Source: a virus
Taxonomy: Duplodnaviria > Caudoviricetes
DNA: 64,000 nt
Virus record (IMG/VR): IMGVR_UViG_3300010162_000393
Location: 32,001 to 96,000 of that record
Direction: 5' to 3' (one strand)
The position numbers and the translations under genes are program-made. Below are positions 2,437-48,867 of this stretch, piece after piece (position 1 is the stretch's first letter; each line of letters starts with the position of its first letter). The notes beneath the pieces are model-generated. The model did no database searches. It had not been told where the DNA came from and saw only the letters and a program-made list of their open reading frames with translations.

Positions 2437-5400
2437 ATGGCATCAAAATTTTCTGTCAATCGTCATGCGACGCAAAAATACAGTGTGTATTCTCGCGTTG
2501 TTAATGATATTTCGCCCGTTGTTGTTGCAAGTACCGCTAAAAGTCCTAACGACATAATCTTCACGATAACATTTTACGTGACTGACTTCAATGATAAAAA
2601 AATTCCAGACGCTTCTGTTTCGATTGTATCACATGATTTCAAGATAATTAACCATTTCGATGGTAGTTATAAAGTTATAGATGTTCCGAATGGTAAATAT
2701 GAATACGTTGTTGAAAAAACGGGTTTTGTTGCGGTTGAAGGAGTAGTAACCGTAAGTGGAAGTGATTTAGAAGTACATGTAAAACTATGTGAGGTTCCAA
2801 GTAAAATCGTTAATGGTAATCTGAATTTCGTAATGAATGAGGAAATGTACCAGAAGTTTGGTTATGTTGGTAGCACACCGGGTACTTGGTCTGTTGTCAA
2901 AGGAGAACTTCCTAATGGTATTACATTTGATCATGATGGTATTCTTAGTGGTACGCCGAGAGCATTTGGTAAATTTGAAGTTACCGTAATGGTAGAAAAC
3001 TCTTGCGGTTCTGTAACAAAAGATTTACTAATTCAAGTATGTGCTGTTCCTGAAATTACAACTGTTGATTTTGTTCTACCTCACAAACAAACTGTGTCTG
3101 AACAATTAAGTTTTTATGGTAGTGAACCGGCAACATGGTCAGTAGAAGATGGTTTGTTACCAAAAGGTTTGTTACTTAATGGGCAAACTGGTGTTATTTC
3201 TGGTACTACAAAAGATTATGGAGATTTTGACGTTACGTTTAAGGTTGCCAATGCTTGTGGGGAAGATGTTAAAGAATTAAAAATAACAATATGTGCTAAA
3301 CCTAAAATTACGAGTAATGATGATACAAAATTCACTATGGGTGAAGAAGGTAGTGTACAATTAACTTCATACGGAAATCCTGGTGTATGGACTCTTTATA
3401 GCGGAAATTTACCTAATGGTTTAACATTATCAGAAGATGGTATTCTAAGTGGTACGCCGACAACTTTCGGAAAATTTGATTTTACTGTAAAAGTTGAAAA
3501 TGCTTGTGGTGAAGATAGACAATTTATGAAAGTTTGGATCTGCGGTAAACCTGAGGTGGTATCCGGTGATATGAGTTTTGTAATGGGGCAACCTGTGTCG
3601 CATCAATTACAATTTTCCGGTAGCAGACCTGGAACATGGTCAATTGTTGAAGGCGTATTACCAAAAGGATTAACATTGAACGCAGAAACAGGTGTAATTA
3701 GTGGAACACCGAAGGAATTTGGTGAAAGTAGTTTCACAGTAATGGTTGTTAACCCTTGTGGTGAAGCGACAAAGGTAGTAAACGCATCTTTGTGTGCTAA
3801 ACCAACCATTATGTCTTGTTGCAGCGGTTGTGACACAAACTTCGTTAAAGGACAAGAAGCGTCAATGCAATATGAAGCGTCTGGTTCTGCCGGTACATGG
3901 TCAGTTTTAGGTGGAATATTACCAACTGGTTTAACATTAGATCCTAACACAGGTATTATTAGTGGTACACCAACAGTAGGTGGTTACTATGAATTTACGT
4001 TGAAATTTACTAACCCTTGCGGCGAGGTAGAGAAATGTATGAGTTTATTCGTGTGTGCTGAACCTTCAATTAAAGGTAGTGGCGAAATTAGTTTTGCAAT
4101 GGGGCAACCCGGATCACATGAATTACATTTTGAAGGTAGTAGACCTGGTATATGGTCAGTATCAGAAGGTGTTTTACCGGCAGGAGTATCATTAAACGCT
4201 GAATTGGGAGTAATTAGTGGAACACCAACTGAATTTGGTGATTTTGATTTCACTTTAAAGGTTACTAACCATTGTGGTGAGTCAACAAAAGAAATGAATA
4301 TATCAATTTGTGGACAACCACAAATTACAAGTGCAGGAAATATCAATATATTGACGGGTGAATCTGTAAATATTCAATTAGAATCAAACGGAACACCTGG
4401 TGTATGGTCTGCCGAATACGGATTACCGGAAGGGTTATCTTTATCTGCCGACGGACTTATATCCGGTGAACCAACAGAATCTGGTAATTTTAATGTTTTA
4501 ATTACATTAACAAATGATTGCGGTGAAGCAAGTAGAAATTTCAACATTTTTGTATGCGCTGAACCGGAAATTTTAACAGGTGATTTTGATGTATTGCAAA
4601 ATACCCCAATGTCGAAACAATTACAGTTTGCTGGTAGCAGACCAGGAACTTGGAGTATTGAAGAAGGTTCTTTACCATGGGAATTGAAAATGGATTCTAA
4701 AGGGGTTGTTAGTGGTACACCTAAAAAAGTTGGATCGTTTAGCGTTCTTCTTAAAGTTAAAAATTATTGCGGTGAAGTAACTAAACCAATAGTTGTAACA
4801 TCGAAAAAAACATATAAAGCAACTTTCATTGTTAAAATGGAAGATGGTACAATGGTTCCGGATGCTAGTGTTGTTGTTGGTGGTTTTATTGTAACCAATA
4901 ATAATAACGGAACTTATGAAAGTTATCTAACTGACGGCGCACATGGTTTTACTGTTACAAAAGAAGGATACGAAGTAGAAGAAGGTGTTGTAGAAATAGA
5001 CGGAGAAGATGTAGTAGTAACTATAATATTATGTGTATTTCCAGAAATATTAAATGGGGATATGAGTTTTGTAATGGGAGTTGCTAAAGTTGTTCAATTG
5101 GAATCAACAGGTTCTGCCGGTGAATGGTCAATTCAAGGTGATTTACCGGAGGGTTTAACCTTTAATGCTACAACAGGTGTAATTAGTGGAACACCAGAAG
5201 AATTTGGTGAATTTGAGATTACATTAATAATGACAAATCCTTGCGGAAGCGTAAGTAAAGATATAGAAATTGTTATATGTGGCGCACCTGAAATTACAAG
5301 TTCAGACGAAATAGAGTTTGTAAAAGGTGAAAAATCTTCATATGAATTAGAATTTTTTGGAACAGACCCGGCAACTTGGGAAGTTTCAGAAGGAAGTTTA

Positions 5401-14400: not shown

Positions 14401-17400
14401 GAACAATTAACATCTTCTGGAACAGCGGGAACTTGGTCAATCGAAACAGGTACATTACCTGCCGGATTGACATTAAACGGAACAACCGGTGTAATTAGTG
14501 GAACACCTACCGAATTTGGTGATAGTTTCAAGTTCACGGTGAAAGTTACTAATCCTTGTGGTAGTGATACAATGGAGATTGATATGTTTGTTTGTGGAAA
14601 ACCAGAAGTTACAACTACCGAAATGGAATTTGTAATGGGGGAAGAGAAAACTGAACACTTAACATTCACAGGGACTACACCAGGAACATGGACAATCGAA
14701 GACGGTGATTTACCGGAAGGGTTGGAATTAGATGAAGAAACTGGTGAAATTAGCGGTACACCGACCGAATTTGGCGAATTTTCAATAAGTGTAAAGGTTG
14801 AAAACCATTGCGGTGACGATATAAAAGAAATTGATATAATAGTATGTGGAGAACCGGAAATTACAAGTAGTAATACTATGGAATTTACAATGGGTGAACC
14901 GGGTTCTGAACAATTAACACATACAGGAACAGAAGGTACATGGTCAATTGTTAGCGGAGAAAGCGATGGAAGTTTTGATGACGACTTTGATGATGACTTC
15001 GATATTGGAGAAGAAGCAAGTGAATTACCAGATGGATTATCATTAAATCCGGAAACCGGTGTTATCAGCGGAACCCCAACTGAATTTGGAAACTTTACAA
15101 TTACGGTTAAAGTTGAAAATGATTGCGGTGAAGATGAAATGGAGGTTGAAATAATAATATGTGGTAAACCGGGAATTATAAGTGACGAATTTGACATTGT
15201 AATGGGTGAACCAGAATCTATCTTATTATTACACGAAGGTAGTGCTCCCGGAACTTGGAATATAGAAGATGGTGATCTACCAGATGGTTTAACATTGAAC
15301 GAGGCAACTGGTGAGATTAGCGGAACAGCAAGTGAATTTGGGGTATTTTCATTCACGGTTAAAGTAGTTAATGCTTGTGGTAGTGATACAAAAGAAATAG
15401 AAATAACTGTTTGTGCGGAACCAGAAATTACAAGTGACGATACGACAGATTTTGTAATGGGAAAACCGGGTTCTAAACAATTAACATATTCAGGTACAGA
15501 AGGTATTTGGTCAATATCAAATGGTATATTACCAAATGGGTTGGCGTTGAATACCATAACAGGTTTAATTAGCGGCACACCTACCGAATTTGGTGATTTT
15601 TCAGTTACAGTAAGAATAGTAAATGATTGTAACGAAGATAGTCAAGTAATTAATATGTTTGTTTGTGGAGAACCAGAAATTACAAGCGACGATGAAATGT
15701 TTTTTGTAATGGATGAAGAAGGTTCTAAACAATTAACATATGTTGGTTCACCTGGTGTTTGGTCAATATCAAATGGTGATTTACCAGAAGGTTTAGATCT
15801 AAACGGAGAAACAGGTTTAATTAGCGGAACAGCGACTGAATTTGGTGAATTTATGTTCACTGTAAAAATAACAAACGACTGTGGGGAAGACGAAATGGAG
15901 ATCGAACTATTCGTTTGTGCAACAGATTCTGAAATAACAAGTGATAATGAGTATGAAATTGAAACCGGAAAAACTGTTTCAATACAATTAACTGCTTCTA
16001 AAACATTAGGTGAGTGGGTAATCGTAGATGGTGGATTACCTATTGGGCTGACATTAAATAAAGAAACCGGTTTGATTAGCGGAACAGCAACAGAATTTGG
16101 TGATTTCAAATTCACTGTAAAAATGGAAACAATTTGCGGTGAAGATGAAATGGAAATTGATATATTTGTTTGCGGTGCACCCGTTATTACAAGTGGTAAT
16201 AGTATGAGTTTCGTAATTGATGAACCCGGTTCTGAAACATTAACATACACAGGAACAGAAGGTACATGGTCAATATCAGTTGGTTCATTACCAAACGGTT
16301 TATCACTAAACACTACAACCGGAGTTGTTAGTGGAACGCCCACTGTATACGGTAACTTTATGTTTACGGTAAAAATAACAAATCCTTGTGGTGAGGCATC
16401 TAGAAATATTAATATGTTCATTTGCGGAACACCTGAAATAACAAGTGGTGATAACATGTTTTTCGTAATGGGCGAGTCCAGTTCAGAAACATTAACATTT
16501 GACGGTAGTAGACCTGGAACATGGGCAATAGAAGAAGGGATATTACCAGGTGGTTTATTGTTAAACGGAACAACTGGTGTGATTACTGGAACTCCGACAG
16601 AGTATGGAGATTATGTTTTCACGGTGAAAATTACAAACCCTTGTGGTTGGGCAACAAAACAAATTAATATGTTGGTGTGCACCGAACCAGAAATAACAAC
16701 AAGTATTAATGAATATGATGGTGTAAAAGGTAATCCTATTTCAATAGAATTAGAATCAATCGGAACAGACGGTGTTTGGTCAGTATCAGCGGGTAAATTA
16801 CCTACAGGATTATTGTTAGATGATGAAACCGGAATAATTAGCGGAACACCAACAGAATTTGGTGACTTCACATTTACAGTAAAAATTACTAACCCTTGTG
16901 GAGTAGATACATTAGAGATAGAATTATTTATTTGTGGTCCAGCGGAAATTATAACAGGTCAGTATTTCCATTTTATACAAGAAGAAGAGGTTGAAGAAAC
17001 ATTAGAGTTTGAAGGAACTCATCCCGGTGTTTGGACAGCAGAAGATTTACCAGAAGGATTAGTGTTGTCAGAAGAAGGTAAATTAAGTGGCTCCCCAACA
17101 GAATTTGGTGAATTTAGAACACAAATAACTGTTAACAATGATTGTGGTGGAGATACAAAAGAATTTTTATTTGAAATAGATGATATTCATCGAATTATAT
17201 TTGAAGTAAAAGATATAAGGACTGGTGATCATATACCTGATGCAACTGTTGTTTGCCCTGATTTAGAAATAGAAAACGTTGGTTATGGTTTTTATGTGAC
17301 AAAATTGGTTGACGGAACGTATGATTGGACAGTTTCAAAAGAAGGTTATTATACTGAAACAGGTACGGTTATTGTAGAAGGAGATGAAGCAGAAGATATT

Positions 17401-19827
17401 CATGTATTAGTCTTACTCCAACCTTTGACACACGAAATTAAATTCATAGTAACAGATGAAGACAGTGGTGAACCGATTATTGGCGCAACCATTGATGTTG
17501 TAAATTCAATAAGTGAACAAGTTGTGTCTTTAACTGATAACGGCGATGGAACATACACGGCGTTTATAGTAAATGGAGATTATGATTATGATGTTTCAAA
17601 AGAAAAATATATACCAAAAGATGGTAGATTCAACATTAATCGTGATGATAAAGTAATTGAAGTACAACTTAAACTTGCATGTGAAATACCTGTTATTACA
17701 AGTAGTAATGAGATATTTTCCCTAATAGGTGAAGAAATTTTCTTACAATTGGAACAAGATGGTACACCGGGTGTATGGACATTGGTTGAGGTAACAGGTT
17801 ATGGTGGTGATTTTAATAACGATTTTAGTAACGATTTCAGTATCGGTAAAAACACTGGTAAATTACCTATTGGGGTAACATTTGATTCTGAAAACGCTAT
17901 TATTGGCGGTATACCAAATGAGTTTGGTATCTTTACCGTTACTGTAAAGTTGGAAAACGACTGTGGTGAAGATGAAATGGAAATTGAAATCTTTGTCTGT
18001 GCTGAATCCGAGATAACAAGTACTAATGAAATTATTAACGAAGAAGAGACTCTTCATACAGTAACACTTCTTACAACTATAGAGCGACGCACAAGTCAAA
18101 TTTTCAACGGAAAGTTGTATATGCCACAAGAACAAGGTACCACCCTTGAAATTTTTGATTTGATAACTGAATCTAGTCGCACGGTAACACTTACAAATAT
18201 GGGGCGATACACAAGTCAAATTTTCAACGGAAAGTTGTATATGCCACGAGCACATCAGTTTCCTACCGGTATCGGCACCCTTGAAATTTTTGATTTGGTA
18301 ACTGAAGTTAATCGCACGGTAACGCTTCCTACAAATAATATGATGCGATACACAAGTCATATTTTCAATGGAAAGTTATATATGCCACAAAGTTGGGGTA
18401 CAACCCTTGAGATTTTTGATTTGATAGAAGAAACTACTCGGACGATAACACTTCCTACAAGTATGGAACGATACACAAGTCAAATTTTCAACGGAAAGTT
18501 ATATATGCCACAAAGTTTGGGTACAACCCTTGAGATCTTTGATTTGGTGACAGAAACTACTCGGACGGTAGCACTTCCTACAAATATGTGGCGAAACACA
18601 AGTCAAATTTTCAATGGAAAGTTATATATGCCACAAAATAACGGTACCACCCTTGAGATTTTTGATTTAACGACAGAAACCACACGCACGGTAACACTCC
18701 CTATAGAAGTGTCTCAGGCAAGTCAAATTTACAATGGAAAGTTATGTATGCCACGTTCTGGTGGTGGAACCACCCTTGTGATTTTTGATTTGATAGAAGA
18801 AACCACTAACATGGTAACACTTTCAACTACAAATACGTTCCTATTAACAAGTCAAATTTACAATGGAAAGTTATATATGCCACAAACCAATGGTACCACC
18901 CTTGTGATTTTTACCACCACAATTATAAAATCAAGTTTATTTGAAATAGAAACAAATAAATATGTTTCAATACAATTAACCGCTTCTGCAACTCCTGGAA
19001 CATGGGTAATTACAGAAGGTGTATTACCACTTGGTTTAGTGTTAAATAATAAAACTGGGTTGATAAGTGGTATTGCAACCGAATTTGGAGAGTTTACATT
19101 TACGGTTGAATTGGAAACACCTTGTAGTATTGATACAACGGAAATTAACATGTTTGTTTGCGGCGCACCTGTTATTACAAGCGGTAATAGTATGTATTTC
19201 GTAATGGGAGAAGGTGACTATAGTGAACAATTAGAATATGTTGGCACAGAAGGTGAATGGTCGGTTTCAACAGGAACATTACCTAGTGGTTTATATTTAA
19301 ATCCAATAACCGGTGTTGTAGATGGTACCCCGAATGTATATGGTAACTTTACTTTCACAATTAAAATTGAAAACCCTTGTGGAGAAGCAACTAAAAACAT
19401 TAGTATGTTCATTTGCGGAAAACCAACCGTTATAACTAATCAGTTAAATTTTGTTAGAGGTGAATTTGGTTCAGAAGAATTAATATTTGCTGGTAGTAGA
19501 CCTGGATATTGGTCAATATTTGGTGGTAGTTTTGACGATGAGGATTTTGATGAATCCTTTGAGACAGAAGACGCTGAATTACCATATGGTTTATCATTAG
19601 ATCCAAATACCGGTATTATTAGCGGAACACCGATTGAAATAGGAAACTATGCAATTCTTGTTAAAGTTGTTAATCCTTGTGGTGAAGCAACAAAAGAAAT
19701 TAATATATTAATATGCGATGAATTTGATATAACAAATGATAATCAATATGATATTATAAAAGGTGATCCTATTTTAATACAATTAACAACTACTTTTGGT
19801 AAAAAAGATGAACCAATAGCACATTAA
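2437..19827 (+). CDS. Giant virion fibre/stalk protein: tandem putative-Ig (He_PIG-like) repeats, carboxypeptidase-regulatory-like domains, inserted beta-propeller
   Basis: 5796 aa; about 84-aa repeat C-x-x-P-x-I...W-S-I-x-x-G-x-L-P-x-G-L-x-L...G-x-I-S-G-T-P-T-x-x-G-x-F...N-x-C-G; no signal peptide; late motif upstream. Confidence 0.8.
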   Translation: MASKFSVNRHATQKYSVYSRVVNDISPVVVASTAKSPNDIIFTITFYVTDFNDKKIPDASVSIVSHDFKIINHFDGSYKVIDVPNGKYEYVVEKTGFVAVEGVVTVSGSDLEVHVKLCEVPSKIVNGNLNFVMNEEMYQKFGYVGSTPGTWSVVKGELPNGITFDHDGILSGTPRAFGKFEVTVMVENSCGSVTKDLLIQVCAVPEITTVDFVLPHKQTVSEQLSFYGSEPATWSVEDGLLPKGLLLNGQTGVISGTTKDYGDFDVTFKVANACGEDVKELKITICAKPKITSNDDTKFTMGEEGSVQLTSYGNPGVWTLYSGNLPNGLTLSEDGILSGTPTTFGKFDFTVKVENACGEDRQFMKVWICGKPEVVSGDMSFVMGQPVSHQLQFSGSRPGTWSIVEGVLPKGLTLNAETGVISGTPKEFGESSFTVMVVNPCGEATKVVNASLCAKPTIMSCCSGCDTNFVKGQEASMQYEASGSAGTWSVLGGILPTGLTLDPNTGIISGTPTVGGYYEFTLKFTNPCGEVEKCMSLFVCAEPSIKGSGEISFAMGQPGSHELHFEGSRPGIWSVSEGVLPAGVSLNAELGVISGTPTEFGDFDFTLKVTNHCGESTKEMNISICGQPQITSAGNINILTGESVNIQLESNGTPGVWSAEYGLPEGLSLSADGLISGEPTESGNFNVLITLTNDCGEASRNFNIFVCAEPEILTGDFDVLQNTPMSKQLQFAGSRPGTWSIEEGSLPWELKMDSKGVVSGTPKKVGSFSVLLKVKNYCGEVTKPIVVTSKKTYKATFIVKMEDGTMVPDASVVVGGFIVTNNNNGTYESYLTDGAHGFTVTKEGYEVEEGVVEIDGEDVVVTIILCVFPEILNGDMSFVMGVAKVVQLESTGSAGEWSIQGDLPEGLTFNATTGVISGTPEEFGEFEITLIMTNPCGSVSKDIEIVICGAPEITSSDEIEFVKGEKSSYELEFFGTDPATWEVSEGSLPAGLTLDAATGEIKGTPTVFGDFVFTVKVTNECGFDEQEISMFICAEPEVTSSGTLSFVMTEEHSEQLTSSGTPGVWSIVTGNLPDGLSLNVATGVISGTATEFGDFTVVVRVVNECGEATKETVISVCGLPVVTSGDMEFVMNEPVSHQLTAEGTEGTWRLLSGKLPLGLTLDSETGIISGTPTEFGDFSIVLRFTNVCGVARKILNIFVCAKPQITSANNINFALSDEASFQLEYTGTPGTWSVVDGDLPEGVTLKPTTGVISGTPVEAGNYYVTLKIENACGDATKSVNIFVCAEPVIIVSNIEFLQNVYVSKQLDFTGSRPGKWEVVSGSFPAGITLATNGVVSGIPTEMGNFEVVVKVKNPCGEDTKEISLFSCAKPVIINDNNIAFVKGEESAVQIEAIGTEGTWSIVSGALPNGLSLDPSGEISGTPTEGGTFKVTVQLENPCGVTTKMMVINVCAKPIIVSGDLDFVQNTPVSHQLRFIGSRPGKWSISAGNLPAGLSLDPNTGIISGSTHEFGEYNLTISVENECGVANKDIIMSTCSKPGIVSGDMNFVINEEGSSLLENSGTAGTWSIISGSLPNGLELDEITGEISGTPTVSGIYTFTVKVVNSCGEATKVVNLYVCAKPVISTGDLSFVMGEAVSQKLQYTGTRPGEWSIEGELPNGLTFNAETETISGIPSEFGEFEVILIVKNPCGEASKTIEIVICAKPVITSDHADFVMGEESSVELEGNGTEGVWTVDSGVLPEGLSLSSDGILSGTPAVSGNHSFTVKFKNACGESIKTILIYICAKPTIVSGDLNIVMGTPMSQQLIFSGTRPGTWSIESGNLPTGITLSEDGVLSGTTTEFGDFDVVIRVENPCGIALKPITIDTCAKPTITNNSDLTFVMNEYSSDELTASGTAGVWSVIGGSVLPDGLELDEETGIISGTPTVSGTFNIVVKIENHCGEDIRSIAIQICAKPTITSGELDFEVGVHGSETLTFTGSRPGTWSIVEGALPAGLTLNGATGVISGTPTEFGEFFVEVKVENHCGEETKEIEIFVCSKPAVTSGSNMNFVMGEAGSAQLTSSGTEGEWEIFAGELPAGLELDEETGLIYGNPTVFGNFAFTVMVVNPCGSATQEINMFICGKPAVISGDMEFVMGEESEEQLMFSGSRPGTWSVVEGDLPEGLTLDAETGVISGTPTEFGDIVFTVKVENPCGEATKEITAVVCGKPVVTSGTNMTFVMNEHSSEQLTSSGTEGIWSIDDGELPMGLILDPETGVISGTPLVFGNFVFTVKVENPCGEATEEINMFICGKPAVLNSTHPNFVMGEENELQLLFSGSRPGTWSIEEGELPEGVTLDPETGIISGIPTEFGDFEFTVKVENPCGEATKDFEMFVCAKPEIISPDKYDSVFDEEILFQLENTGTEGIWEITEGELPLGLELDEEGLIVGTPRVFGHFKFKVMVVNPCGEDEMEIDMFICKLPEIVSEEFDFVLGEESSEELTFIGSRPGSWSVVEGDLPAGLVLDSVEGTISGTATEKGDFNITLKVINPCGEDTKEIKIFVCEEPEVTSGGYFEFVMGNEVELQLEHTGTDGEWSLVEGDYLPEGLELNSETGLISGIATEFGNFYFTVKLTNYCGEAYKVIQIFMCGLPEILTESMGFVMGEEDDHQIVATGSMPGTWSIIEGVLPNSFVLNTSTGIISGTLTEHGEFPITVKLVNSCGETTKEIIITVCQTPTITSENDLEFVMGERVTFQLTNDGTAGEWEIIDGELPEGLRLNPLTGVISGRAREFGNFTFTVKIDNHCGSDTQVIEMFMCGLPVILHGNMNFQINEPGSDTFIGDGTPGTWSIVGGGLLPTGLTLNPTTGEVSGTPTVAGHFELVVKLENDCGSIMRDVVIFVCAPPEIIGEIDDFYVMGSEISQEFQFSGSRPGEWSVVGGDLPEGVTFDPETGILSGIPTEHGEFIFTVKVENPCGEATKEINIFICLEPEIITGGLEFDFNEYGEFELEVIGSEGAWSIVDGDLPIGLSLNEETGVISGTPTENGVFPITVKFENDCGSDETEILIVICKEPEITTEEMTPSLNNPYSQNIEYTGTEPHTWAIVGGDLPLGLVLNEFTGEISGTPLEFGDFIITVKAENDCGEDEKSILISVCAAPTVITTGLEFVVGQEGSEVLESFGTPGTWSIEDGDLPEGLLLDPDTGEISGTPTDLDVFGEIKITVKVENDCGDDEKEITLFICREPEITTEDMYAFVDEEFSEFIVYEGSEPHSWEIVDGDLPDGLDLDPETGEISGTPTEFGDFIFTVKVENYCGEDEKEIHMFVCAPPEIEIEDDEYDAVMGEEFSMQLTAYGTGGEWSIEDGDLPEGLTLNSETGEISGTPTEFGVFTITFKIENNCGEQNVEVTIYVCGEPEISTGQYIHLVQLEEFELQLEFTGTQPGTWSAVNLPDGLVLSEDGLLSGIPTGHEDVTSQITVTNDCGTDTKSFFFDVDDVHRLIFEVKDIRTGDHIPDATVLCPGLDAVENVGSGFYITILNDGTYTWSVSKEGYYPKSGTVIVEGDEAEDIHVLVELQPLTHEIKFIVTDEDSGDPIIGATIDVVNKESGDTVSLTDNGDGTYTAFIINGEYDYDVSKEKYIPADGEFEIDHDDEVVEVQLKLACVVPTITSGDSMYFVMDEEGFELLEYTGTEGEWSIVEGDLPDGLDLDPETGEVSGTPTEYGNFIFTAKIINECGEDEIEIDLFVCAPETEIISDDEYEIVSGSPVSIQLTTSATLGTWEIVDGGLPAGLTLSETGLISGTATEIGEFWFTVKMEAPCCEDEMEIYMFVCGTPTITSSNNMYFVMGEEDDFQLTATGSEGLWSISTGSLPSGLTLDAGTGEISGTPTVYGNFTFTVKIVNPCGEATQNVNMSICGKPEITSANLGFVMDEVGARQLQYDGSRPGTWAIVDGDLPAGLALNASTGIIIGVPTEFGVFEVTVKVTNVCDEDTKEIIITVCASPEITNENTMEFTIGESGSEQLTSSGTAGTWSIETGTLPAGLTLNGTTGVISGTPTEFGDSFKFTVKVTNPCGSDTMEIDMFVCGKPEVTTTEMEFVMGEEKTEHLTFTGTTPGTWTIEDGDLPEGLELDEETGEISGTPTEFGEFSISVKVENHCGDDIKEIDIIVCGEPEITSSNTMEFTMGEPGSEQLTHTGTEGTWSIVSGESDGSFDDDFDDDFDIGEEASELPDGLSLNPETGVISGTPTEFGNFTITVKVENDCGEDEMEVEIIICGKPGIISDEFDIVMGEPESILLLHEGSAPGTWNIEDGDLPDGLTLNEATGEISGTASEFGVFSFTVKVVNACGSDTKEIEITVCAEPEITSDDTTDFVMGKPGSKQLTYSGTEGIWSISNGILPNGLALNTITGLISGTPTEFGDFSVTVRIVNDCNEDSQVINMFVCGEPEITSDDEMFFVMDEEGSKQLTYVGSPGVWSISNGDLPEGLDLNGETGLISGTATEFGEFMFTVKITNDCGEDEMEIELFVCATDSEITSDNEYEIETGKTVSIQLTASKTLGEWVIVDGGLPIGLTLNKETGLISGTATEFGDFKFTVKMETICGEDEMEIDIFVCGAPVITSGNSMSFVIDEPGSETLTYTGTEGTWSISVGSLPNGLSLNTTTGVVSGTPTVYGNFMFTVKITNPCGEASRNINMFICGTPEITSGDNMFFVMGESSSETLTFDGSRPGTWAIEEGILPGGLLLNGTTGVITGTPTEYGDYVFTVKITNPCGWATKQINMLVCTEPEITTSINEYDGVKGNPISIELESIGTDGVWSVSAGKLPTGLLLDDETGIISGTPTEFGDFTFTVKITNPCGVDTLEIELFICGPAEIITGQYFHFIQEEEVEETLEFEGTHPGVWTAEDLPEGLVLSEEGKLSGSPTEFGEFRTQITVNNDCGGDTKEFLFEIDDIHRIIFEVKDIRTGDHIPDATVVCPDLEIENVGYGFYVTKLVDGTYDWTVSKEGYYTETGTVIVEGDEAEDIHVLVLLQPLTHEIKFIVTDEDSGEPIIGATIDVVNSISEQVVSLTDNGDGTYTAFIVNGDYDYDVSKEKYIPKDGRFNINRDDKVIEVQLKLACEIPVITSSNEIFSLIGEEIFLQLEQDGTPGVWTLVEVTGYGGDFNNDFSNDFSIGKNTGKLPIGVTFDSENAIIGGIPNEFGIFTVTVKLENDCGEDEMEIEIFVCAESEITSTNEIINEEETLHTVTLLTTIERRTSQIFNGKLYMPQEQGTTLEIFDLITESSRTVTLTNMGRYTSQIFNGKLYMPRAHQFPTGIGTLEIFDLVTEVNRTVTLPTNNMMRYTSHIFNGKLYMPQSWGTTLEIFDLIEETTRTITLPTSMERYTSQIFNGKLYMPQSLGTTLEIFDLVTETTRTVALPTNMWRNTSQIFNGKLYMPQNNGTTLEIFDLTTETTRTVTLPIEVSQASQIYNGKLCMPRSGGGTTLVIFDLIEETTNMVTLSTTNTFLLTSQIYNGKLYMPQTNGTTLVIFTTTIIKSSLFEIETNKYVSIQLTASATPGTWVITEGVLPLGLVLNNKTGLISGIATEFGEFTFTVELETPCSIDTTEINMFVCGAPVITSGNSMYFVMGEGDYSEQLEYVGTEGEWSVSTGTLPSGLYLNPITGVVDGTPNVYGNFTFTIKIENPCGEATKNISMFICGKPTVITNQLNFVRGEFGSEELIFAGSRPGYWSIFGGSFDDEDFDESFETEDAELPYGLSLDPNTGIISGTPIEIGNYAILVKVVNPCGEATKEINILICDEFDITNDNQYDIIKGDPILIQLTTTFGKKDEPIAH
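18050..18920 (+). repeat. Seven 120-141-nt tandem repeats encoding beta-propeller blades (TSQIFNGKLYMP...GTTLEIFDL)
   Basis: Repeat cores start at 18091, 18211, 18352, 18475, 18598, 18718 and 18847. Confidence 0.85.
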
Positions 19828-19830
19828 TAT

Positions 19831-19838
19831 CTATTTAT
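19831..19838 (+). promoter_or_regulatory. Putative late promoter CTATTTAT
   Basis: Lies in the 47-nt gap between the giant ORF and its continuation. Confidence 0.65.
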
Positions 19839-19874
19839 GAATAAAAGAAAAATAATATTTAAATATAAAAAATT

Positions 19875-22664
19875 ATGGATTCAAAATTAATAAACGAATG
19901 GACAATTATATACGGTAGATTACCAAATGGTTTGTTGTTGGATAAGGAAACCGGTGAAATAAGCGGTATCCCAACCGAAACAGGTAACTTCACATTTACT
20001 GTAAAGGTTGTAAATCTTTGTGGAGAAGAAACAATGGAGATAGAATTGTTTGTTTGCGCAATGCCTGAAATTACGACCGCACCATATTTTCATTTTATAC
20101 AATTAGAAGAAATTGAAGAAAAAATATTAGAGTTTGAAGGAACTCAACCAGGAGTATGGTCTGCTGTTAATTTGCCAGACGGGTTAATATTATCGGAAGA
20201 CGGAAAACTAACAGGAACACCAACCGGATATGGTGAAATAAAATCAGAAATAACTGTTACCAATGCCTGTGGAGCAGATACTGTAGAATTTCTTTTTGAT
20301 TTAGATGATGTTCATCAAATTATATTTGAAGTAAAAGATAAACGAACCGGTGAACATATACCTGACGCAACAGTTATTTGCCCTGATTTGGAAATAGAAA
20401 ATCATGATAATGGTTTTTATACAACAATACTGAATGACGGGGAGCATCCTTGGCATGTTTCAAAAGAAGGGTATTTTCCAGAAGAAGGGACCGTTGTAGT
20501 AGAAGGAGATGAGGGGGAAGATATTTATGTGTTGGTGGAACTTCAACCAACAACATATGAATTAAAGTTTATTGTTACATATGAAGATACAGGAAATCCG
20601 GTAACAGATGCTACTATTGGGGTTATAAATTCTGAAACTGAACAAATTATTTCTTTAACAAATAAAGGTGGTGGTGTGTACTCTACATTTGTTGAAAATG
20701 GTAAATATGATTGGGGCGTTTCAAAAGAAAGTTATATTCCAGTAGATGGTGACGTTACTATTAATTATGCGGACGAGGTAATTGAGGTTGCGCTTATCCA
20801 AACTACAAAAGAATTAATATTTAAGGTAATAAATAATGGTGGTAGTTTTAGTGAACTACATTTTGATAATTCTTTTGATGTTGGCGGAAGGTTAATTAAT
20901 GATGCGACGGTTGTTTCTGGTAATTCACTGATTGATTTAGATATAACAAACAACAATGACGGTACTTATAAAACAGAAGTGTTTTCTGGTACATATAACT
21001 ATGCAATATCAAAAGAGGGATTCATAACCGAAAAAGGTAGTGTAGTGGTGCAAAGTGAAAATGTTGAAGTTTCTGTCCCACTTTCTGAAATAGTTGGTAT
21101 TATAACAGTAAATGCGACTGTTGCCCTGAGTAATGCTACTTGTAGTGCAACAATATCAGCATCTCCTGTATTATCTGGTTATACATATGATTGGTCTTTA
21201 TGGAATATGGATACAGAAACTTTAATTTCACAATCTCTTAATCAAACAGGTACTACATGGAATATGGGAGCAATGAGTAGTGGAAATCAAAATGTACCTC
21301 TTGAAGTACGCTGTACTGTAAAAGAACCTGTTTCGTCCGGCACCGCTTCGTTTGTTTGTACCCCACTTCCTTTGTGGAGAGTAACACAATTAAACCCTAC
21401 TTTGACGGTAAATAGAGCAAATATAATAACAGGTGAAACATTTATTGCCACATGTACAAACACCGTCGGAATGTCGCCGTTTGAATATGTATTTGAGGTG
21501 ATTAACCGCAGTAACGGTGAAGTAATACACGGTCCAATAAATCAAGATGTGTTAAATATATTTGAATATACACCAGCGACATTAGGAAATTATGGTGTTC
21601 GTTGTAGAGTGAATGTAAAAAATATACCTGTTGAATTTTATGATCAAACAGATGGGTTAGCAACAAGACTCGCTACCGTTAGTGGTCAAACTGATAACAT
21701 TGCTAGGGTTGATGTATACGATCCTATTGTTGCGACAATATCAACACCAAAATTAGGTCTGATGGAAGATGAACCGTTTGTTGTAACATGTACTTGGTCT
21801 GGTGGTTTAAGTCCATTTAGTTTTATTTGGAGTATGTGGCGAAAAGATGGTAGTACTTATACACAAATTGGAGCAAATACCACTACTACATCTTTTCAAT
21901 ATGGTAATGGTACATCAGCTTTATTTCCTACTCAATTTGCAACGCTCTTTACAAGTGGTGAAGCGAGTGGAATTAAAGAGGTTGAATTTAGATGTAGAGT
22001 AGAGAGTACTTCAACTTTATTTAACCCTCGTTTATCATGTGATGTGGTTCCAATTGTTGTTCAAATAGAACGACCACCATTTCAGTTTGTTTCAATAACA
22101 TTGGAAGGTACTGAACCTGGAGATGGTGACGATGGGAAAAGTCCTAGTCATTTTTTTGGAACAACCATAAAGGCAACTATTAATTTTACTGGTGGTACAC
22201 TACCAATAACACGTTACCAAAGAAGATTATCAACCCTTACAAATACAAATGGAAATTTAATTGCACTTGGTGATATTACACCGCTATCACCAACATTTGA
22301 GTTTATATGGCCGGTGTCAAACGGATCAACAAGTGGTAATGTTGATCATGTTACCTTGTATTGTACAGTAAGAGATAATAAGAATAGAGAAATAAATGGT
22401 AGTATAATAATATATAATTATATGTTTGGTAAACTATCTGGTATTATCACTTACAATCAGAAAAAACCAACAGGTGATGAAACGCTACCATACGTTATAA
22501 CACCATATGGTGGTGTTGGAACAGTTTATTATAGTTGGAAAATATACGATAATGAAACCAATGAATTAGTTGCAACGATTCCATCAATTGGTACCCAAAC
22601 CGGTACAACTATTAATTATGCAATTCCCTCAAGTCTTGCTCATTATGATGCTTTGATAAAATAA
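19875..22664 (+). CDS. Fibre continuation protein: half Ig repeat, Ig, carboxypeptidase-regulatory-like and PKD-like domains
   Basis: Starts mid-repeat (EWTIIYGRLPNGL...NLCG); later GG-x-x-P-F/Y-x-Y-x-W...C-x-V PKD-like units. Confidence 0.75.
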   Translation: MDSKLINEWTIIYGRLPNGLLLDKETGEISGIPTETGNFTFTVKVVNLCGEETMEIELFVCAMPEITTAPYFHFIQLEEIEEKILEFEGTQPGVWSAVNLPDGLILSEDGKLTGTPTGYGEIKSEITVTNACGADTVEFLFDLDDVHQIIFEVKDKRTGEHIPDATVICPDLEIENHDNGFYTTILNDGEHPWHVSKEGYFPEEGTVVVEGDEGEDIYVLVELQPTTYELKFIVTYEDTGNPVTDATIGVINSETEQIISLTNKGGGVYSTFVENGKYDWGVSKESYIPVDGDVTINYADEVIEVALIQTTKELIFKVINNGGSFSELHFDNSFDVGGRLINDATVVSGNSLIDLDITNNNDGTYKTEVFSGTYNYAISKEGFITEKGSVVVQSENVEVSVPLSEIVGIITVNATVALSNATCSATISASPVLSGYTYDWSLWNMDTETLISQSLNQTGTTWNMGAMSSGNQNVPLEVRCTVKEPVSSGTASFVCTPLPLWRVTQLNPTLTVNRANIITGETFIATCTNTVGMSPFEYVFEVINRSNGEVIHGPINQDVLNIFEYTPATLGNYGVRCRVNVKNIPVEFYDQTDGLATRLATVSGQTDNIARVDVYDPIVATISTPKLGLMEDEPFVVTCTWSGGLSPFSFIWSMWRKDGSTYTQIGANTTTTSFQYGNGTSALFPTQFATLFTSGEASGIKEVEFRCRVESTSTLFNPRLSCDVVPIVVQIERPPFQFVSITLEGTEPGDGDDGKSPSHFFGTTIKATINFTGGTLPITRYQRRLSTLTNTNGNLIALGDITPLSPTFEFIWPVSNGSTSGNVDHVTLYCTVRDNKNREINGSIIIYNYMFGKLSGIITYNQKKPTGDETLPYVITPYGGVGTVYYSWKIYDNETNELVATIPSIGTQTGTTINYAIPSSLAHYDALIK

Positions 22665-47616: not shown

Positions 47617-48867
47617 ATGCAAACATTCGTTAATGGTGGTAAAAACAATATAAACCCAACACGCGGAGATTTTCCGCGCAGTTATGGTGATACATGGAAA
47701 AAACTATTGACTCTTGAAGCATTTCTTGACCAAGCAAATAACCCAAAACTTATGTCTTTGGAAGATATAGATGCGAGTTTCAAGGAATGGGTTGAGCGTA
47801 ATTTAGAAATAACATATGCCGGACAACTTATACCAACACAATTTTTATTATCAATACAAAGATTAAGTGAGTTCGGAAAAAACTGGAAGATAACAAATAA
47901 TGAAGGGGAATTAATACTATCATTCAAAACAATATCCAGAGAATTGGCACCACAACAAGGTACAATGTATGATAAGATATATAACATACCTGGAGAACCA
48001 ACGTGGCCGGTATGTTATATACCTATTATTGAAAATGGTATTGAGGGATATGATGTTATTTCAATGAAACAACCAAACCAGGTTGATCTTAAATACACTG
48101 TATCTATTTTTAGTACTAAAATGGATACTGTTAATAAGTTTAATACATTGGTTATTGATAGATTCAAATCATTGCAAGCATATTTAAGGGTTAGGGATAC
48201 ATATTATGTTTCAATGGTATTAGAAAAGGTTAGCGATGAAACTAAAATGGAAATAGAAGAAAGGCGTTATTATGTTCAAAATTATGAAATACTTGTCAAA
48301 GCATATTTGTTACAAGAATCAGATTTTAAAAGAGAACGTCTTCAAAACAGAGTATTGGTTTCGGTTGATACGGAGGCAAAGTTTAAACCATGTGCTACAA
48401 TTATGGAAGATGATTGTTGTCCCGGTGCAATAGTTTTAACCATTGATTTTCCGCTTGAATCTAAAAGTTATGTAAAATTCAGAATAGACGAAAATGTATA
48501 TATTAAATCTGTTTCAAGTGATAATATTCGTTCATTTTCATTGAAACGAAATGATGAACCAGTACATAATGCCTGTGTTGGCGGATTTGATTTACGTGAA
48601 AATGATAGAGTAGAAATTCATTTTAAAAAATGGGATAATTATCTACCTGCAAGAATTAGATTTAGTGGTCAAATCGTTTGTTGTGAAGAACCAAAAAGCG
48701 TTTTTGATTGTACTATACCTGAAATAGAAGGTGAGGATATAATATTTGAGGAAGCTGATCCATGTATTTTACCAGAAATAGATAGTGATGAAATATCATT
48801 TGATTATATTGACCCATGTATTGTTCCGGAAATATTATCTAATTCAGTTTCTTTTGTATTATCGTGA
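47617..48867 (+). CDS. Putative tail completion/sheath-stabiliser (gp15-like) protein with C-terminal CxxPEI repeats
   Basis: CTATTTAT at 47593-47600; SLEDIDASF...P-x-x-VDLKYTVSIF pattern resembles jumbo-phage tail terminators. Confidence 0.55.
   Translation: MQTFVNGGKNNINPTRGDFPRSYGDTWKKLLTLEAFLDQANNPKLMSLEDIDASFKEWVERNLEITYAGQLIPTQFLLSIQRLSEFGKNWKITNNEGELILSFKTISRELAPQQGTMYDKIYNIPGEPTWPVCYIPIIENGIEGYDVISMKQPNQVDLKYTVSIFSTKMDTVNKFNTLVIDRFKSLQAYLRVRDTYYVSMVLEKVSDETKMEIEERRYYVQNYEILVKAYLLQESDFKRERLQNRVLVSVDTEAKFKPCATIMEDDCCPGAIVLTIDFPLESKSYVKFRIDENVYIKSVSSDNIRSFSLKRNDEPVHNACVGGFDLRENDRVEIHFKKWDNYLPARIRFSGQIVCCEEPKSVFDCTIPEIEGEDIIFEEADPCILPEIDSDEISFDYIDPCIVPEILSNSVSFVLS

Follow-up and report, generated by a model that had tools for sequence, protein, structure and literature searches.

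The stretch of DNA analysed here (the window; 64,000 nucleotides, nt) comprises bases 32001–96000 of the 136.9-kb virus record IMGVR_UViG_3300010162_000393 (hereafter G000), whose completeness CheckV puts at 38%. It carries DNA-metabolism genes together with open reading frames (ORFs) of giant size, encoding proteins of 5796, 929, 1770 and 2228 amino acids (aa), and because the complete members of its clade measure 360–367 kb and have terminal repeats, we assign it to a jumbo myovirus; a tail sheath gene (phrog_23 match, Table 1) marks it as a contractile-tail phage. Our subject is the tail terminator gene, whose product ends in three short repeats that resemble the first strands of the He_PIG domains, of immunoglobulin (Ig) type, in the giant fibre of the same phage. 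We suggest that these repeats may act as plugs for strand-deficient He_PIG domains (sockets) on small separate proteins, of the kind encoded by a relative. The related genomes analysed whole were G001 (complete, 367 kb), G004 (100% complete) and G003 (74%), and a hidden Markov model (HMM) of the fibre repeat was run over all of their stop-to-stop frames.

Table 1. Features of the window and of the relative G001 (positions are those of the window unless another genome or locus is named; pLDDT, per-residue model confidence).
Feature	Position	Strand	Details
Tail terminator gene, 416 aa	47617..48867	+	gp15-like core, extra beta domain, Cys-Cys, three donor-like repeats; stop 48865-48867
gp15/gpU-type terminator core, residues 39-239	47731..48333	+	structure alignment to T4 gp15 4huh_C
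Extra C-terminal beta domain, residues 258-354	48388..48678	+	eight predicted strands, pLDDT about 67-76
Cys-Cys pair (residues 355-356) and degenerate 'zeroth' copy, residues 355-364	48679..48708	+	shorter, Cys-x-x-Pro-Lys-x-Val-Phe-Asp
Donor-like repeat 1, 18 aa	48709..48762	+	Cys residue 365
Donor-like repeat 2, 18 aa	48763..48816	+	Cys residue 383; DNA identity to repeat 1 72%
Donor-like repeat 3, 16 aa	48817..48864	+	Cys residue 401; overlaps protease gene 3' end
Giant fibre gene, 5796 aa, about 60 He_PIG repeats of about 84 aa	2437..19827	+	repeat HMM: 60 domains
Fibre continuation, 929 aa	19875..22664	+	N-terminal He_PIG domain without strands A-B
Tail sheath gene, 1319 aa	35017-38976	-	phrog_23, E 4e-36
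AAA+ / Peptidase_M41 (FtsH-like) protease gene, 738 aa	48804-51020	convergent with terminator gene	
P0014, 95 aa, candidate socket and plug	G001:7097-7384 (L005:7097-7384)	-	repeat-HMM 24-93
P0016, 229 aa	G001:22266-22952 (L006:2266-2952)	-	repeat-HMM 30-91; GTG start (JGI call agrees)

The terminator protein was assigned to no family by Pfam or PHROG at E ≤ 0.01, and tblastn found no match to it in 50,697 phage records. Its identity comes from its predicted fold. An AlphaFold2 model built on an alignment of homologues (protein searches returned 13, at 44–89% identity) has a mean pLDDT of 58, with 65–85 in the core, and the core aligns with T4 gp15 (4huh_C) by VIA-align at Z 13.1 over 152 residues (root-mean-square deviation 3.9). 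The top 50 rows of that search are all tail terminators or caps, from contractile and non-contractile phage tails, pyocins and injection systems. Foldseek matched the T4 neck structure 9mkb at E 6e-6 and assigned a probability of 1.00 to 9mkb, 8fvh, 8jan and 4hud, and the structure neighbours in BFVD bear the name 'tail sheath stabilizer and completion protein'. On the strength of this modelled fold, the ORF is a tail terminator, or tail-completion protein, of the T4 gp15 type, and the Z score of 13.1 supports the label that a first-pass annotation had given it. Terminators of the gp15 and gpU kinds are hexamers. A profile search of 1.84 billion representatives widened the family to 436 representative clusters, all of them without annotation. 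Most of this family keeps the beta domain that follows the core, and most members stop just past it. We considered whether this beta domain might itself be a divergent He_PIG and dropped the idea, as hhalign against the He_PIG repeat profile returned a probability of 0.5% and aligned just an 8-residue Cys-x-x-Pro stretch. The last part of the window's protein (residues 356–416) is modelled as disordered in the monomer, with pLDDT below 30, as would be expected of a stretch whose folding depends on a partner.

This disordered tail holds the three repeats that the first-pass annotation had picked out, with Cys codons at 48709, 48763 and 48817 spaced 54 nt (18 aa) apart, and each of the three, in phase, reads Cys-x-x-Pro-Glu-Ile-x-(Ser/Gly)-x-x-(Ile/Val)-x-Phe. 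The third continues as Phe-Val-Leu-Ser up to the stop codon, the counterpart of Phe-Val-Met-Gly in the fibre. The two fibre repeats to which they had been likened lie at 5032 and 9796 within the giant fibre ORF. When all six frames of the 136.9-kb record were searched for Cys-x-x-Pro-Glu-(Ile/Leu/Val), there were 28 matches, of which 24 fell in the giant ORF, one in ORF 19875–22664 and three in the terminator tail, so that the tail copies are the sole matches in the 116.6 kb left when the fibre genes are excluded. Locally shuffled sequence averaged 0.8 matches and reversed sequence gave 0. A matrix made from 54 fibre junctions ranked the tail repeats first, third and fourth among about 119,000 non-fibre positions. 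The tail motif is not a chance pattern. The second rank went to position 48013, a Cys-x-x-Pro-x-Ile stretch within the terminator core; its Cys is not kept in homologues, and as a further copy of the motif it is probably a chance match.

What the tail copies can be read from the fibre itself. A two-domain piece of the fibre matches Pfam He_PIG (PF05345) at E 3.7e-22, the profile beginning about two residues ahead of the boundary Cys, and an AlphaFold2 model of two repeats, made from 38 repeat pairs, reached a pLDDT of 94.8. In this model the invariant boundary Cys is the final residue of strand G of the previous domain, Pro-Glu-Ile forms a short strand A, the next strand, of five residues and ending in Phe-Val, is A', and a second invariant Cys sits in the F-G hairpin turn. 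The tail repeats are in register with the fibre segment from the Cys (-3) through +12. They thus match the N-terminal segment of He_PIG, namely the boundary Cys with strands A and A', and, as first described, they do so without the remaining domain: the terminator protein has no He_PIG match, and its repeats of 16–18 residues fall short of a complete sandwich of about 85–96 residues. The terminator tail is a He_PIG fragment and not a member of the family.

In the Ig topology the F-G turn adjoins the start of strand A, so in the fibre the boundary Cys is most likely joined by a disulfide to the F-G Cys of the next domain, by analogy with that topology. Both the Cys and the Pro are invariant, in 101 of 101 fibre junctions and in 20 of 20 tail repeats. 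At the DNA level, by contrast with the protein level, the best blastn-short score of the tail against the fibre genes was no better than that of codon-shuffled tails. Recent gene conversion from the fibre was rejected on this ground, and the likeness of tail and fibre must be old or convergent and maintained at the protein level.

G001 encodes domains from which precisely this segment is missing, and it also carries a giant fibre with 49 repeat-HMM domains and a terminator 72% identical to that of the window, with three repeats of its own. Two of its small proteins, P0014 and P0016, begin right after strand A' (Phe-Val-Met-Gly), at repeat-HMM positions 24–30, with a stop codon 3–5 codons upstream of their starts (three codons for P0014), and G001 encodes no upstream partner able to supply the missing strand to either. 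A third protein, P0015, comes from another sample, is 76% identical to P0014 and shares its start and end. P0014 and P0016 both retain the Cys of the F-G turn. Strand-deficient He_PIG domains therefore exist in a complete, tail-bearing relative as P0014 and P0016, with P0015 of the same architecture, and the segment they lack is the one that the terminator repeats hold: the sockets start after Phe-Val-Met-Gly, and the repeats span the Cys to Phe(-Val-Leu-Ser).

The ends of these proteins differ. P0014 runs through strand G into Cys-x-x-Pro-Glu-Ile-Leu-Ser-Asp-Glu-Ile-Ile-Phe and an acidic tail, and P0015 ends in the same way. Since just two residues separate strand G from this donor, it should be too short of slack to complete the domain it is attached to, to judge from the tandem-repeat model, where this same linker runs on into the following domain. 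P0016 has no boundary Cys or donor past strand G; an unrelated domain of about 150 residues follows instead. That distal domain is beta-rich, and ESM Atlas gave weak leads for it (Ig-like or surface-glycan-binding, scores below 0.9). The P0014 and P0016 genes lie some 165–180 kb from the G001 terminator gene, among unrelated genes. Outside the fibre, the extended motif occurs in the whole of G001 in the terminator tail and P0014 only. A predicted complex of the P0014 socket (residues 1–68) with the window's tail (residues 355–416) scored 0.32 against 0.14 for the best control, a difference below the 0.20 margin set for a call, and thus speaks neither for nor against binding.

A comparison of 20 terminator repeats from eight proteins with 101 fibre-internal strands showed that the two sets differ systematically and that the donor of P0014 and P0015 goes with the former. 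This donor is identical to the terminator repeats at a mean of 6.95 of 14 positions (maximum 10), and to the fibre-internal strands at 4.4–5.3. Ile or Val stands at +7 in 90% of tail repeats and 5% of fibre-internal strands, Asp, Glu or Asn at +5 in 90% and 31%, and a hydrophobic residue at +3 in 80% and 41%, while after the Phe the tail repeats have an acidic residue and the fibre-internal strands Val-Met-Gly. These marks of class are thus shared by the P0014/P0015 donor and the terminator repeats across different genes. The three sockets likewise have in common residues that are rare in the fibre, namely Ile in strand B followed by Arg or Lys, Val before Leu-Pro, Pro after the conserved Phe, and Ile in strand G. 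The residues common to the sockets could, however, reflect common descent instead.

The same data bear on a quite different explanation, in which the fibre linkers, P0014 and the terminator tail share a short linear motif read by a common modifying, cross-linking or folding enzyme, or in which the Cys bridges fibre and neck through a disulfide or a metal. The invariance of Cys and Pro would fit such a site, as would the Cys-Cys pair ahead of the repeats and the one Cys-x-x-Pro site kept in distant terminators of phages that lack He_PIG. Yet conservation runs 10 residues past the Pro in an alternating hydrophobic pattern (Ile at +2, Ile/Val at +7, Phe/Ile at +9), and such strand-like conservation through A and A' is more than an enzyme recognition site would need. 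A linear motif also leaves unexplained the proteins that start exactly at the end of the motif segment, and no candidate enzyme was identified. We consider this explanation decidedly unlikely.

The partner first proposed for the tail is the fibre itself: by filling the gap in a strand-deficient fibre domain, the plugs would tie the 5796-aa fibre or its 929-aa continuation straight to the neck. The tail motif is the fibre-repeat motif, fibre and tail co-occur, and ORF 19875, named as the acceptor in the first-pass annotation, does start with an N-terminally truncated He_PIG domain (repeat-HMM 39–93, without strands A, A' and B). However, the strands it lacks are encoded 48 nt upstream. A single He_PIG domain is split over 19705–20030, such that the giant ORF's C-terminus ends in strands A–B (44 residues with their own boundary Cys) and ORF 19875 starts with strands C–G, the two being separated by a 48-nt AT-rich spacer and a change of frame; in G001 their counterparts form a single gene. 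All other fibre domains have a strand A of their own. At the other end of the fibre (2437–2790), a conserved leader of 37 residues and a CarboxypepD_reg-like domain precede the complete He_PIG domains, and this CarboxypepD_reg-like end, rather than a socket, is likely to be the end by which the fibre attaches to the virion. With no socket at either end, and with tail repeats that are systematically unlike the fibre-internal strands, our data do not point to direct anchoring of the giant fibre, and we regard it as improbable; small separate proteins are the likelier partners. Two of the fibre repeats (14959–15019 and 17788–17854) carry insertions of about 20 residues in the loop at repeat-HMM positions 45–46, where the gene is also split, so this loop seems to be a permissive site.

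The repeats vary in number among close relatives, with one in L059 (ending at a real stop codon), two in P0001, P0005 and L058, three in the window, P0002/G001 and P0004, and four in P0003. The tail is conserved in this sense, as had been asked of it, and its motif positions stay constant while spacers and copy number vary, among homologues whose cores are only 67–89% identical. Repeats inside one protein are often near-identical, which suggests that duplication or homogenization is ongoing. Beyond these relatives, in distant homologues (44–52% identical) there is no more than a single Cys-x-x-Pro-Lys-Phe site, after which the protein ends or goes on into other domains, and the repeats are absent from all 148 representatives fetched for the wider terminator family. 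In P0031 and P0060 a single (Cys/Tyr)-x-Asn-Pro-Asp-Val-Val-(Tyr/Phe)-Asp boundary ends the beta domain, like the 'zeroth' copy in the window, and the repeats may have evolved from a boundary of this type. Relatives of the terminator were found at six loci in a metagenome scan and four in a viral scan; the viral scan with P0015 returned fragments of the G001 lineage only. Among whole genomes, G000 and G001 have both the tail repeats and numerous He_PIG matches (55 and 48, respectively), and G004 and G003, whose terminators are of the distant kind with at most one such site, have neither. Tail, fibre and sockets thus co-occur or are all absent in a comparison of two clades, as expected if the tail is found only alongside the Cys-bearing Ig-like fibre.

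This variation might be taken as a sign that the repeats have no function, whether as the relic of a lost C-terminal Ig-type domain (the alternative offered in the first-pass annotation, as a truncated Ig fusion) or as neutral duplications of the terminator's own boundary. A copy number of one to four, and possibly zero, would be in keeping with this, as would near-identical repeats inside single proteins and the other domains that follow the single Cys-x-x-Pro site in distant homologues. Neutral sequence, though, would hardly keep its motif positions at 67–89% core identity while its spacers drift, or converge on class-specific residues with the donor of P0014 and P0015, which is a different gene, or be confined to the clade that bears He_PIG. 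A truncated fusion in particular is disfavoured by the conserved motif, by the lack of DNA similarity to the fibre and by the class-specific donor features. We hold a relic to be just as improbable as direct anchoring of the giant fibre.

Least credible to us is self-assembly, in which the strands would pair with the protein's own beta domain, or with neighbouring subunits as a neck collar, the likeness to the fibre being convergent. The repeats do come straight after a beta domain, the last strand of which has a Cys at its end as the G strand of He_PIG does, and terminators form hexamers. Against this, the tail is modelled as disordered and without contact to the beta domain even when an alignment is supplied, most members of the family (those 45% identical included) have no tail, and the beta domain has no profile similarity to He_PIG.

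Our preferred reading, argued from sequence comparison and given a probability of about 0.5, is that the terminator carries plugs in tandem, to which He_PIG sockets short of a strand dock at the neck. The C-terminal tail would be a tandem array of three plug peptides, and six terminator subunits would sit atop the sheath with their flexible tails directed outward. Each plug would insert into a He_PIG socket that is encoded without the plug segment, completing its beta sandwich, and the plug Cys could form a disulfide with the otherwise unpaired F-G-turn Cys of the socket. Docking would tether small accessory proteins at the sheath–neck junction. The plug period of 16–18 residues is about as long as the segment that the sockets lack, so a head-to-tail row of three sockets could be strung on the tail, as are the beads in the covalent fibre. 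In G001 the parts would form a polar set: the terminator, with plugs only, as anchor; P0014, with socket and plug, as stalk or adaptor unit; and P0016, with a socket and an unrelated distal domain and no plug, as tip. The sockets of the window's own phage would lie in the 62% of its genome outside the record. Binding, disulfide, stoichiometry and the presence of sockets in that phage are all things that we infer. The plug reading gains support from the fibre of the same phage, whose proteins are joined via a split Ig domain.

Several observations weigh against this reading. The close homologues P0006 and P0007 end at the Cys-Cys, and if those proteins are complete the tail is dispensable. The pattern of presence and absence described above amounts to two clades and not to independent events. 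Distant terminators of phages without He_PIG have one Cys-x-x-Pro-(Asp/Lys)-(Val/Phe) boundary after their beta domain, so duplication of a boundary that the terminator already had may have given rise to the repeats, and their likeness to the fibre may be partly generic to the boundaries of Ig-type domains. No socket was found in the 136.9 kb of G000 besides the split joint of the fibre, in a record that is 38% complete; tblastn of P0014, P0015, P0016 and their neighbours against G000 hit the fibre repeats only, and since the genes that neighbour the sockets in G001 are absent, the G000 contig lacks the region syntenic to them. The partner of the window's tail is thus inferred from a relative with a 72%-identical terminator, the socket genes come from one phage lineage and one short contig, and P0016 is a singleton with a GTG start. 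Finally, the cytoplasm is not a place where disulfides are expected, and the gut of the host is for the most part anoxic.

Two other genes deserve brief mention. The tail sheath protein, at 1319 aa, is unusually long; its match to the sheath profile is confined to the last ~330 residues, and its middle part has weak matches to head-closure and baseplate-wedge profiles. The protease gene overlaps the terminator gene by 64 nt (48804–48867), spanning the third repeat, whereas the two genes overlap by 4 nt in G001, where the protease lacks 16 residues by comparison, which makes the larger overlap in the window look incidental.

Completion of one protein's Ig-like domain by another's strand is well known. 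In chaperone-usher pili (Fim, Pap, Caf1), strand-deficient Ig-like subunits are completed by a strand of their neighbour, but there the subunits lack the C-terminal strand G and receive it from an N-terminal extension, and a periplasmic chaperone and usher are needed. For a virion assembled in the cytoplasm, no dedicated helper of this sort (chaperone, usher or strand-removing protease) would be expected, and no chaperone or usher is seen here. With T4 gp15 (4hud/4huh, 9mkb) the terminator shares its fold and presumed sheath–neck position, while gp15 has neither the extra beta domain nor the repeats. A phage counterpart is the siphovirus baseplate of Lactococcus phage Tuc2009, in which a C-terminal hairpin of BppU completes an Ig-like (titin-like) domain of BppA, as solved structurally (PMC4742702). 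There too, a short C-terminal extension of a virion protein completes an incomplete Ig-like domain of a separate accessory protein, which it thereby tethers to the virion, as proposed here. Tuc2009 uses one two-strand hairpin and domain 2 of BppA; we find, by contrast, three tandem Cys-bearing A/A' plugs on the terminator of a jumbo myovirus and a socket that itself carries a plug, a system known from sequence.

The division of labour in G001 has a parallel in the type V pili of Bacteroidia (FimA, Mfa1), in which the place of each next subunit's N-terminal strand is taken by a C-terminal donor and subunits fall into anchors (which donate and cannot accept), stalks (which do both) and tips (which accept only) (PMC13655056). 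The terminator tail, P0014 and P0016 would mirror these three classes. No homology is implied, as type V pilins have a transthyretin-like fold and assemble extracellularly on lipoproteins, and they are made complete and then lose their N-terminal strand to gingipain, whereas the sockets have the He_PIG fold and are encoded strandless. Among neck appendages, phage A-1(L) has bead-chain fibres self-assembled from several proteins (PMC10966104), but the known neck fibres (T4 fibritin whiskers, A-1(L)) attach to the neck or collar via folded N-terminal domains and not via a repeat tail on the terminator. Another related case is the split joint in the phage's own fibre locus, which involves the same domain family, with one domain on two polypeptides; there, however, the genes are adjacent and the cut is in the B–C loop, whereas here the donor and putative acceptors lie tens to hundreds of kb apart, the cut falls after A', and a protein that is not part of the fibre carries the donor in tandem copies. 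Full-text literature searches found no paper on donor strands on a terminator. The split-Ig principle itself is not new; what is new is the site (the tail terminator), the cut (after A/A') and the format (tandem plugs, and a subunit that combines socket and plug).

If the proposal is true, the tail terminator, usually a plain cap, has been turned into a docking rail that recruits separately encoded Ig-like modules to the neck, and split-Ig joints extend to the neck, to an N-terminal A/A' cut point and to a tandem format. A subunit with both socket and plug would allow, in principle, pilus-like polymerization. In a bolder version, unlikely as it stands, the terminator tail anchors a donor-strand polymer, each of its three plugs starting a chain of P0014-type subunits with a P0016-type cap and with joints locked by a disulfide between plug Cys and F-G-turn Cys, which would give each particle up to 18 self-assembling neck whiskers built on the anchor–stalk–tip logic of bacterial pili. 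The plug and socket would also make a compact natural peptide–domain pair, a candidate protein-ligation tag. More generally, they would supply a sequence rule by which accessory virion proteins of uncultivated giant phages may be recognized, namely orphan first strands together with domains that start one strand late.

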